DNA of 8,413 bases from Candidatus Heimdallarchaeota archaeon (GTDB lineage Archaea; Asgardarchaeota; Heimdallarchaeia; Heimdallarchaeales; Heimdallarchaeaceae). A program made the translations under genes and the position numbers. How positions within the stretch are numbered: the first letter of the stretch is position 1; each line of letters starts with the position of its first letter. The stretch lies in the NCBI GenBank assembly GCA_030668875.1, contig DAOVER010000084.1, positions 1 through 8,413 on the forward strand. The letters are read 5' to 3'. Shown one piece after another: positions 4,084 to 6,303 of the stretch. The notes under the pieces were generated by a model. It was not told the DNA's origin, did no database searches, and saw only the letters and a list, made by a program, of their open reading frames with translations.

Positions 4084-4142
4084 AAGAGATTTATTTCAAA
4101 TAAGATTAATATTTCAAAAATCAGTTTTTATTCGAAAAAAGT

Positions 4143-4251
4143 TGGTGCCTCGACCGGGATTTGAACCCGGGTCTGCGGATTTTCCTGCTTTGTCACGCGG
4201 ACTTTCACATGTGAAAGTCCGCAATGATTGGCCGAACTACACCATCGAGGC
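4143..4251 (-). tRNA. tRNA-Glu (anticodon UUC) with a 31-nt insertion in the anticodon loop (most simply a 37/38 intron, 4211-4181); CCA encoded
   Basis: Acceptor GCCTCGA/TCGAGGC-A-CCA; archaeal Glu-type D-arm TGGTGTAGTTCGGCCAATCAT; anticodon stem GCGGA/TCCGC with CT-TTC-A; T-arm CCGGG-TTCAAAT-CCCGG. Length 109 nt, or 78 nt after removing 31 nt. Confidence 0.88.
4197..4222. repeat. Perfect 26-bp palindrome spanning the tRNA-Glu exon/intron junction
   Basis: gcggactttcacatgtgaaagtccgc is its own reverse complement. Confidence 0.97.
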
Positions 4252-4342: not shown

Positions 4343-5119
4343 TTAACTTTCTACCATTTCTCCAAGAAACGATAGTATTTTATCAAAAACCTCTTGTTTA
4401 TGTGGATCCACAGTCAAGATATGGTCACCTTTCTGTACAAAAAACAATTCCTTTTTGGTTTTCAAGTCTTCGTACAGCTCCTCTGCTCCTTCTGGTTTAG
4501 CTGTTATATCCTCTTCAGACTGAATTATTAATACTGGAACGTTAATTTCATCTACTTTCCTGTGTAATATCCTTAACATTTTGTACAATTGGCTAGCTGC
4601 TGGTATAGAATCTTCAGAATAGGAAAAAAGATTATTTTCCACATACCATTTAATTCTTTCTTCATTTTTTTGTTTGTGAGCTCCAAAAAGACTTAGAAAC
4701 CAGGCAGTAAAAGACGATGTCTTTGATAAGTGATAAAAAGCGCTGATGGTAAAAATAGCTTTGAATTTCATCTGTGTTGAGGAATACAGTGCTAGAGCTC
4801 CTCCCATTGAAACCCCCCCAACAAAAATGTTAGTATACTTAGGAGTATATTCATCGTATGCTTCTTGTATATTACCAATCCATTCTTCCCACCTCACATT
4901 ATCCATATCATCAGGTTTAGTTCCATGCCCTTTCAGAAGGACCCCCTTCACATCATATCCTTCAGAATAAAGAAATTCTCCTAACAGTCTTGTCTCTGTA
5001 GCTGAAGCACCAAAACCATGTACTAAAATTATTAGATTCTTTGATTGCTTCTTGTCATTTTTAAAATAATACGATTTAGCAAGCTCTCTCAATCGTTCCG
5101 GATAGACATCTGTAAGCAT
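4343..5119 (-). CDS. Alpha/beta-hydrolase, carboxylesterase/monoacylglycerol-lipase-like (~258 aa); start reassigned to ATG5119
   Basis: LVHGFGAS oxyanion motif, GVSMGG nucleophile elbow, QSEEDITA (Asp), KGDHIL (His). The track's 70-codon N-terminal extension to 5329 overlaps the opposite-strand RAM gene and TATA-like boxes, so it is probably not coding. Confidence 0.9.
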   Translation of the reverse strand: MLTDVYPERLRELAKSYYFKNDKKQSKNLIILVHGFGASATETRLLGEFLYSEGYDVKGVLLKGHGTKPDDMDNVRWEEWIGNIQEAYDEYTPKYTNIFVGGVSMGGALALYSSTQMKFKAIFTISAFYHLSKTSSFTAWFLSLFGAHKQKNEERIKWYVENNLFSYSEDSIPAASQLYKMLRILHRKVDEINVPVLIIQSEEDITAKPEGAEELYEDLKTKKELFFVQKGDHILTVDPHKQEVFDKILSFLGEMVES

Positions 5120-5183
5120 GTGTGATGATTCAGCTAATTTAGCTATAAAATATCGTTGATTTATACATAAATTGTCGATGTCT

Positions 5184-5200
5184 GAAAAAAGTTTATTAAA
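5184..5200 (+). promoter_or_regulatory. Candidate BRE plus TATA box for the RAM-domain gene
   Basis: GAAAAAAG followed by TTTATTAAA, about 35 nt upstream of ATG5234. Confidence 0.45.
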
Positions 5201-5233
5201 CGTGTTGACATATAGTTTGTTGGTGAAATCCAA

Positions 5234-5467
5234 ATGGCAATAGCTTTCATCCTGATTAATAGTGAAATAGGAGAAGAAAAGAGCGTACTCGACCAACTTA
5301 TGTCCCTTCCAAATGTTAGTGAAGCCCATGTAGTCTATGGTGTTTATGACCTAATTGCGAAGATCGAAGCAGATACAATGGATGAATTAAAGAAAATTGT
5401 TACAGAAAATCTACGAGCATTAGAAAATGTACGTAGTACAATGACAATGATCTGTGTCGAGAAATAA
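5234..5467 (+). CDS. Stand-alone Lrp/AsnC ligand-binding (RAM) domain protein, no helix-turn-helix
   Basis: 77 aa with AFILIN...V.EAHVVYGVYDLIAKIEA...V.ST.TMI, the typical AsnC C-terminal fold signature. Confidence 0.92.
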   Translation: MAIAFILINSEIGEEKSVLDQLMSLPNVSEAHVVYGVYDLIAKIEADTMDELKKIVTENLRALENVRSTMTMICVEK

Positions 5468-5577: not shown

Positions 5578-6303
5578 ATGGGTTATGAAATAGTATATGA
5601 AATCTTATTATTATTACTTGGTTACTTCTGTGGCTCTATTCCTGTTGCATATTTAATTGGAAAACTGGGGCATGGAATAGATATCAGAGAACACGGTTCT
5701 GGCAATATGGGAACCGCTAATGTATTGAGGACTCTTGGGAAGAAAGCAGGGCTGACAACTTTGGTTCTAGATATGCTCAAAGGAACAATAGCTGTTCTAT
5801 GTGCCAGGTTTTATCTTTGGTTTGGTAATTATAGTTATTTTGGGACCGATAGTACCAGTGGTTTCCCATTAACCTTAGATGAGGGGTTTTTCCTAGCTTT
5901 AGTGGCTTTTATGACAATAATTGGTCATAGTCTTCCTGTATGGCTTAAATTCCGAGGAGGTAAATCAGCTGCAGTAGGAGCAGGAGCAATGCTAGGAATT
6001 AATCCAATTGCTTGGGTGATAATTATGATCATCTGGTTCTTCCTTTTGAAATTTACAAAACTAATGTCTCTCTCGAATTTATCTGTAACACTAATTTCTA
6101 TGCCCTTTTACTGGTATTTTGGTGGAAATAGTTTCTTCGGAAATAATAGCCTATGGGCTTTAATAGTAAGCGCAGCAATGGTAGTTTTCATTTATTGGAG
6201 GCATAGAGCAAATATCAAACGGCTTCTAACTTGTACAGAGAGAAAGATGGGTCAAAAGGTAGATATAGAAAAAGACACGAAGGCAAAAACGGAAACTAAT
6301 TAG
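5578..6303 (+). CDS. plsY: Acyl-phosphate:glycerol-3-phosphate acyltransferase PlsY
   Basis: GYFCGSIP; motif 1 DIREHGSGNMGTANVLR; DMLKG; motif 2 GHSLPVWLKFRGGK; motif 3 RHRANIKRLL..TE; multiple hydrophobic segments. Confidence 0.95.
   Translation: MGYEIVYEILLLLLGYFCGSIPVAYLIGKLGHGIDIREHGSGNMGTANVLRTLGKKAGLTTLVLDMLKGTIAVLCARFYLWFGNYSYFGTDSTSGFPLTLDEGFFLALVAFMTIIGHSLPVWLKFRGGKSAAVGAGAMLGINPIAWVIIMIIWFFLLKFTKLMSLSNLSVTLISMPFYWYFGGNSFFGNNSLWALIVSAAMVVFIYWRHRANIKRLLTCTERKMGQKVDIEKDTKAKTETN

Follow-up and report, generated by a model that had tools for sequence, protein, structure and literature searches.

How can a tRNA precursor be spliced when half of its intron is antisense to its own anticodon arm, and when the canonical splice position seems to offer no proper BHB motif to the archaeal endonuclease? 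This question is raised by a tRNA-Glu(UUC) gene of a Heimdall-group Asgard archaeon, which we analysed within an 8,413-nt stretch of its DNA (the window). The resulting puzzle is that an essential precursor has a conserved fold whose predicted stability far exceeds that of the fold needed by the splicing enzyme. Cuts, folding order and function are derived throughout from sequence, covariation and nearest-neighbour energies. Nucleotides (nt) of the pre-tRNA are numbered from window position 4251 on the minus strand, and in the anticodon arm the standard tRNA position equals the nt number minus 3.

Identity and distribution of the tRNA-Glu(UUC) gene

The gene, with its encoded CCA, occupies window positions 4143–4251 on the minus strand. 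It matches Rfam model RF00005 with 48.4 bits against a cut-off of 29 and covers the full model length, with the tRNA body at 4251–4146 and the CCA reaching 4143. The Rfam alignment and direct reading both place the anticodon UUC (positions 34–36) at 4213–4215. Exon 1 (4211–4251, tRNA positions 1–38, last base C38) is identical to the first 41 nt of the intronless tRNA-Glu(CUC) gene of the same genome (G000, C9:32443–32520) except for U34 in place of C34, and exon 2 (4143–4179, positions 39–76 including CCA) is identical to the 3′ part of that paralogue; relatives agree with the exon 1 boundary. Between the two exons lies a 31-nt intron (4180–4210), placed between positions 38 and 39 by register analysis, paralogue identity and A/U variation at nt 72. 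The true 3′ strand of the anticodon stem, nt 73–77 (4175–4179), covaries with nt 30–31 in the sister genus. Two bases past the CCA, direct reading finds a run of six T (4135–4140), likely to act as a transcription stop. Rfam score and the match to a Glu-type paralogue together confirm the tRNA-Glu(UUC) identity assigned in the original prediction.

Whether this is the only tRNA-Glu(UUC) gene of its genome could also be addressed within the 92%-complete assembly. The only other Glu-type genes there are the intronless tRNA-Glu(CUC) on contig C9 and a tRNA-Asp; no second tRNA-Glu(UUC) gene was found, and the gene studied here is therefore the sole one. No other copy of its intron was found in the genome, and no further Rfam family matched the region at E values up to 1.

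Automated gene finders misname genes of this type. ARAGORN overlooks the gene when run without introns and, when introns are allowed, reports a tRNA-Phe(GAA) interrupted at 33/34, a register that the original prediction had mentioned as not fitting BHB geometry. That register contains no central pairs, the tRNA body is of Glu type, and the real tRNA-Phe(GAA) gene of this genome lies on contig C70. With introns allowed, the same program turns a tRNA-Tyr(GUA) with C1:G72 (C33:5287–5407) into Asn, a tRNA-Lys(UUU) (C15:3151–3258) into a stop-codon tRNA and a tRNA-Arg(CCG) (C9:41925–42014) into Trp, because it misplaces their introns. The Phe call and the fact that the contigs of several relatives end near tRNA-Glu are the two observations that favour a gene that does not work as tRNA-Glu at all, whether a pseudogene, an artefact of assembly or a tRNA-Phe(GAA) interrupted at 33/34. 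We consider this extremely improbable in the face of the evidence above and of the distribution of the gene among relatives.

Of the 24 genomes in the genus, 18 contain the intron-bearing gene at 92–100% identity; completeness in the remaining six is 72–89%. Two genomes of the sister genus have it as well, and a third genus has a more diverged version. Metagenomes were scanned with exon 1 as the sole anchor, a pattern that could have recovered intronless or spliced forms; this returned 14 contigs, and every one of them carries the intron. In total the same structure is present in more than 30 independent assemblies, and across the genus the exons are nearly invariant and the intron is variable. 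This spread through the genus, the sister genus and metagenomes therefore means that the gene is neither an assembly artefact nor a dead copy, the two dismissive readings that had been entertained when the locus was first described, and it answers the accompanying question about intron conservation in the affirmative.

Several observations concern copies of the gene in relatives and its surroundings in the window. One relative (G016) carries a second intron-bearing copy, L040 (contig C24:3130–3235), whose sole difference from the gene studied here is U34 to C, making it a CUC isoacceptor; the change introduces a mismatch into the decoy described below and into the central splicing helix alike, and the copy reflects a recent switch of anticodon or else mixed strains in the assembly. 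Contigs C190 and C122 of G010, C79 of G013, C212 and C145 of G014 and C95 of G020 end within or beside the tRNA-Glu gene, likely because the UUC and CUC genes are near-identical repeats. In the window itself, positions 1–333 encode an N-terminal fragment of a serine recombinase (resolvase) that runs off the window start, and positions 901–2289 encode a 462-amino-acid protein with a Cas12f/TnpB-type domain; together they look like an IS607-family element upstream of two tRNA genes. An intronless tRNA-Leu(UAG) scoring 58.4 bits lies on the minus strand at 2726–2810. An alpha/beta hydrolase gene (4343–5329) adjoins a gene for a PlsY-type glycerol-3-phosphate acyltransferase (5578–6303; Pfam E = 8e-51), here in an archaeal genome.

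Splice register at 38/39 or 37/38

The two plausible positions of the intron differ by one base, and they predict different mature tRNAs. Excision of nt 42–72, between positions 38 and 39, restores the seven-nucleotide loop CUUUCAC in a 78-nt product whose sole difference from the intronless tRNA-Glu(CUC) of the same genome is the first anticodon base. Excision of nt 41–71, at the canonical 37/38 site, creates a second mismatch to this paralogue, A for C at position 38. Positions 37–38 are AC or GA, never AA, in the intronless and canonically interrupted Glu tRNAs examined in the class. In an alignment of 23 distinct sequences from relatives, C at nt 41 is invariant like other exon bases, and nt 72 behaves as an intron base should, with A in 19 sequences and U in 4. 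The intronless paralogue in this way provides a simple check of the junction.

Pairing geometry also differs sharply between the registers. At 38/39, a central helix is predicted between nt 36–39 (UUUC, bases 33–36; window 4213–4216) and nt 67–70 (GGAA; 4182–4185), an assignment that follows from register analysis and pairing in relatives. On its 5′ side lies a 3-nt bulge, nt 40–42 (4210–4212), with the predicted cut after nt 41, followed by an inner helix h′ of nt 43–45 (4207–4209) with nt 64–66 (4186–4188). Further into the intron, nt 50–52 would pair with nt 58–60 to form a small hairpin with a conserved 5-nt loop (4192–4202). The 3′ side departs from the strict motif: only nt 71–72 (4180–4181) are unpaired, facing the unpaired C32, and the base after the predicted cut at nt 72 is already paired in the anticodon stem. 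The outer helix is consequently not contiguous with the central helix (h = 0), and the 3′ cut falls outside a proper 3-nt bulge. Judged from its sequence, the 38/39 site is best described as a relaxed motif of the HBh′ type in which the relaxed part is the shortened 3′ bulge. At 37/38, the central helix consists of C·A, U·G, U·G and U-A (score 0111), exactly the pairs given in the original prediction, and the inner helix is absent (h′ = 0). The earlier conclusion that the intron lacks a good BHB thus holds for the canonical position and fails one base further on, where four central pairs, a 3-nt 5′ bulge and a covarying inner helix are present. We also considered placing a BHB inside the decoy fold or a three-way-junction fold; by reasoning through these structures, we found no arrangement that put both cuts in the correct place.

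Comparative analysis agrees with the shifted register. Over the 23 sequences, the 38/39 fold is paired in 95.9% of cells, compared with 75% for the 37/38 register, whose inner helix reaches 30%. Two-sided changes support the 38/39 inner helix: the pair 43:66 changes from U-A to C-G in two relatives, and 45:64 occurs as U·G, C-G, U-A and A-U. In the small intronic hairpin, 50:60 is found as G-C, G·U and A-U. Four central pairs combined with an inner helix of at least two pairs occur at 38/39 in 17 of 23 sequences, and four central pairs occur at 37/38 in 2 of 23. The inner helix comprises 2–8 pairs at 38/39 in all 23 sequences; at 37/38, h′ is 0 in all of them and C32 stands opposite A in 21.

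A canonical cut at 37/38 through an hBH-type motif, combining a weak central helix with a good outer one and a 3-nt bulge on the 3′ side, would give A38 and the loop CUUUCAA. In its favour, the anticodon stem and a 3-nt AAA bulge are intact in this register (h = 7), most other introns of the genome sit at 37/38, some of them tolerate one or two central mismatches, and the two relatives with four central pairs would suit it. Against it stand the missing inner helix, the C32 mismatch in nearly all relatives, the disagreement with the paralogue at position 38, an AA dinucleotide absent from the Glu tRNAs examined, the U38 that four relatives would acquire, and a predicted fold energy of −30.6 kcal/mol, 18.6 kcal/mol above the minimum. 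We therefore regard a 37/38 cut as improbable. Instead, we infer a one-base slide of this genus's intron away from the canonical site, because one neighbour has a Glu gene with C on both sides of the intron, from which either register yields one and the same product. On this evidence, an Asgard tRNA intron that appears to be without a motif would be explained by a one-base slide of the splice site.

The 38/39 reading assumes a single excision. In a nested two-step alternative, an 18-nt piece (nt 44–61) containing the antisense copy would be removed first through a helix of nt 38–41 with nt 56–59. The 13-nt mini-intron left behind would resemble those that tRNA-His and tRNA-Thr carry in this genome. 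The required four pairs with their 3-nt flanks are indeed present, and introns of 12–13 nt with helix–loop geometry occur elsewhere in the genome, but the inner piece has no inner helix, and the sister genus, which lacks one base there, has lost the four pairs. Because the nested fold faces the same competition from the decoy as one-step splicing, it adds no explanatory power, and we judge it highly improbable.

A decoy hairpin predicted to compete with the splicing fold

The antisense copy of the anticodon arm makes up the 5′ half of the intron and takes part in a long hairpin. Direct search finds a perfect 26-nt palindrome at window positions 4197–4222, with 13-nt arms and no spacer, against an expectation of about 0.0003 such palindromes given the window's length and base composition; folding and comparison with relatives identify the same element as the core of a hairpin. 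It pairs the 5′ strand and loop of the anticodon arm (nt 30–40) with intron nt 45–55, and past one bulged U the helix continues between nt 25–28, in the 3′ strand of the D stem, and intron nt 56–59, so that the full decoy helix spans 4193–4227 on the minus strand. The intron also contains an imperfect direct repeat of the start of the 3′ exon, the two copies being 22 nt apart. Palindrome, bulged extension and direct copy had all been described in the original prediction and were recovered here unchanged. The 22-nt spacing is the combined length of anticodon arm and variable loop, and the 5′ copy repeats positions 27–38 in inverted orientation. Tandem or inverted duplication was considered as an origin, and no one simple event yields the sequence.

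Folding predictions assign this hairpin a dominant role in the precursor. The whole pre-tRNA has a z score of −5.5 relative to shuffled sequences, and its minimum-energy fold, at −49.2 kcal/mol, uses the palindrome hairpin; the best structure combining a cloverleaf with the 38/39 motif is predicted at −37.1 kcal/mol. The suspicion that a strong alternative fold hides the anticodon is borne out by this difference, and the fold is in addition conserved in relatives. Across 13 precursors of the genome with anticodon-loop introns, the corresponding gap is 0 to about 9 kcal/mol in eleven and reaches its maximum of 12.1 kcal/mol in tRNA-Glu and tRNA-Met. The decoy would be complete once 55 nt have been transcribed, and direct refolding is predicted to face a barrier near 18 kcal/mol, in energy models that leave out tertiary structure, base modification and proteins.

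Two mutually exclusive folds are therefore both conserved, as the decoy helix is paired in 95.6% of cells over the same 23 sequences, mainly through invariance and changes that preserve U·G pairing, and the RNAalifold consensus is the decoy hairpin. Intron nt 50–58 have a mean variability about that of the exons, and nt 45–46, 61–63 and 70–72 vary freely. Five of the conserved bases in nt 50–58 form only a loop in the splicing fold, and the exon-like conservation of the decoy core including these five hints at selection on the decoy itself. None of 3,000 shuffled introns matched the observed decoy (p = 0.0003). Only this genome and its closest relatives have the palindrome with a perfect centre. 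Beyond the genus and its sister genus, decoy enrichment is weak (Fisher p = 0.02) and lends little support to a rule by which Glu introns throughout the class would contain one. Two further hairpins were set aside: a hairpin of nt 51–55 with nt 64–69 is not kept in relatives, with 55:64 and 52:68 often broken, and the second hairpin of the minimum-energy fold has 64:77 and 68:74 unpaired in 6–7 of 23 sequences.

These observations allow the decoy to be read as a selected functional element, in one of two versions. As a conformational gate, it would hold back splicing of the sole tRNA-Glu(UUC) until a helicase, a chaperone or a condition opens it; as a source of antisense RNA, the excised and probably circularised intron would target the anticodon arm of Glu tRNA. 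For the gate, the sequence itself points to no ligand or factor. The conserved helix and its consensus fold, the exon-like constraint on nt 50–58 beside freely varying unpaired positions, the shuffling result and an energy gap that is the largest in the genome, common to tRNA-Met, all point in this direction, as does one compensatory change to A:U at 30:55 in the CUC gene of the sister genus. Most of this support, however, consists of invariance or one-sided changes that relatedness alone can produce. The sister-genus gene L020, in which the exon has changed, has an A·C mismatch at 30:55, and in the divergent relative L062 the contiguous decoy is down to 5 bp and G50 is replaced by A; the matching change there, C60 to U, compensates within the splicing fold's small hairpin, not within the decoy. 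The weak enrichment beyond the genus pair and the failure to find C/D boxes or a known RNA family in the region count against selection as well. On balance we regard a selected decoy as possible, if doubtful.

A stronger form of this idea, in which the self-antisense half of the intron is a device that locks the sole tRNA-Glu(UUC) precursor in an uncuttable state or gives rise to a stable circular antisense RNA, is in our view rather unlikely. Were the lock real, splicing and the decoding of GAA would depend on an RNA-remodelling factor or condition, and either the lock or the circular RNA would amount to control of archaeal tRNA maturation by intron structure, of which we found no description in the literature.

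The reading that we favour, and consider probable, is that the gene works, that a relaxed motif directs cutting of its intron at 38/39, and that the decoy is inherited and at most delays maturation. In this model, minus-strand transcription of the sole tRNA-Glu(UUC) gene would produce a precursor interrupted once, between positions 38 and 39, by a protein-free intron of 31 nt that belongs to the BHB type cut by archaeal endonuclease. The very stable decoy hairpin would form first, the 5′ half of the intron acting as antisense to the anticodon arm, and would have to be opened before cutting, whether through the folding tRNA body, the enzyme or RNA chaperones. In the splicing fold, bases 33–36 (UUUC) would then pair with GGAA near the 3′ end of the intron. 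The 5′ cut would fall inside the 3-nt bulge, next to the short inner helix, and the 3′ cut inside the shortened 2-nt bulge beside the anticodon stem. A two-subunit endonuclease with a broad-specificity loop would make both cuts, and ligation would give the loop CUUUCAC. The decoy would then be an inherited feature of this intron lineage that stands outside the cutting mechanism and at most delays splicing.

Other non-canonical introns in this genome and its relatives provide a precedent for this reading. Besides the imperfect 3′ bulge and the conserved decoy core described above, two considerations weigh against it. With a gap of about 12 kcal/mol and a barrier of about 18 kcal/mol, almost no molecules would be cuttable in the absence of help, according to the models; and relaxed motifs are frequent by chance if intron boundaries may shift (preprint 10.64898/2026.10.13.758758). 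A decoy with a function would offer a means of timing or regulating tRNA maturation in the archaea most closely related to eukaryotes, and one without a function would quantify the misfolding that the archaeal splicing system tolerates.

Introns elsewhere in the genome and family show related features. The tRNA-Met(CAU) gene of this genome (G000, C12:11424–11546), whose fold gap equals that of tRNA-Glu, has a 50-nt intron flanked by an 8-nt direct repeat; the repeat includes the 3′ strand of the anticodon stem, and a complete decoy anticodon arm can therefore form. This intron and those of tRNA-Leu(UAA) (C24:7570–7696) and tRNA-Leu(CAA) (C12:46313–46434) have the words AAGGGYUAGA and GAUGMG.AA in common near their 3′ ends, which may represent a protein-binding or kink-turn-like element or a common origin. 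Introns of about 30 nt interrupt the T loop of tRNA-Asp(GUC) (contig C12, minus strand, from about 36541) and of tRNA-Phe(GAA) (contig C70, minus strand, from about 499). In two other genera of the family, tRNA-Glu genes (L019 in G026, L030, L038, L039 and L044) are interrupted a second time, in the T loop near 59/60, by an intron of about 30 nt, and one complete genome has a T-loop intron and a decoy-bearing intron in the same Glu gene. In another family, two Glu genes (L080 and L081, G040) contain an intervening sequence 5′ of the anticodon loop with a second copy of the 5′ strand of the anticodon stem, a mirror image of the decoy studied here.

The splicing endonuclease and known intron classes

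The genome encodes two EndA paralogues, in the regions C71:40119–40349 and C2:4044–4304. The first, of 185 residues, aligns with the catalytic alpha subunit of Aeropyrum pernix (E = 4e-37), and the alignment covers the Crenarchaea-specific loop insert, with Lys at the place of K44. The second, of 182 residues, is more distant and beta-like, resembling structural subunits. As far as these alignments can tell, the host has a broad-specificity alpha-plus-beta endonuclease with the loop lysine.

Among known introns, the box C/D guide intron of archaeal pre-tRNA-Trp likewise pairs with the anticodon arm of its own precursor. The intron studied here differs in being 31 nt long and free of C or D boxes by reading; its nearest box-like words are 8 nt apart, compared with about 12 in box C/D guides. 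Together with the lack of an Rfam match at E up to 1, this led us to reject a box C/D guide within the intron.

Closer parallels are found among relaxed introns. An Asgard (alpha-beta)2 EndA with the specific loop has been described by Kaneta et al. and tied to the cutting of relaxed motifs (PMC5829648), and the HBh′ class of such motifs is described for archaea with two-subunit endonucleases (PMC4090602, PMC5829648). Like the relaxed HBh′ and hBH introns of Crenarchaeota, above all of Thermoproteales, the intron studied here is protein-free and has a 4-bp helix with flanking bulges, one of which is degenerate (Marck and Grosjean 2003, as reviewed in PMC4090602), and as in Crenarchaeota it lies at a position other than 37/38 in a host with a two-subunit endonuclease (PMC4090602). 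It differs from them in that the shift is of one base within the anticodon loop, that the host is an Asgard archaeon and that a long conserved antisense copy is predicted to out-compete the splicing fold; we did not find position 38/39 listed in the review PMC4090602. Pre-tRNA-Glu of Methanopyrus kandleri also has a relaxed HBh′ intron that needs an (alpha-beta)2 endonuclease (PMC5829648). The M. kandleri enzyme, however, is without the specific loop and cuts poorly, whereas the loop lysine is present in the host studied here, and no decoy hairpin is described for the M. kandleri precursor in PMC5829648.

Within the same phylum as our gene, a survey of Asgard archaea reports heavily interrupted tRNA genes with many non-canonical sites, relaxed motifs and two EndA paralogues, Heimdall lineages being less interrupted than others; tRNA-Glu, hairpins and palindromes are not mentioned in it (preprint 10.64898/2026.10.13.758758). 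Neighbouring genera and families offer a further comparison: their tRNA-Glu genes L021, L044, L046 and L049 carry strict hBHBh′ introns at 37/38, which are of similar length and interrupt the same loop CUUUCAC, and one of which has a GUCCGC element in common with the intron studied here. These introns differ in having four central pairs and both flanking helices at 37/38; in our gene, C38 precedes the intron, which costs the 3′ bulge one base. The intron thus belongs to a well-known kind, cut by the enzyme at a non-canonical site through a relaxed motif, and its unusual points are the one-base slide and the conserved, dominant decoy.
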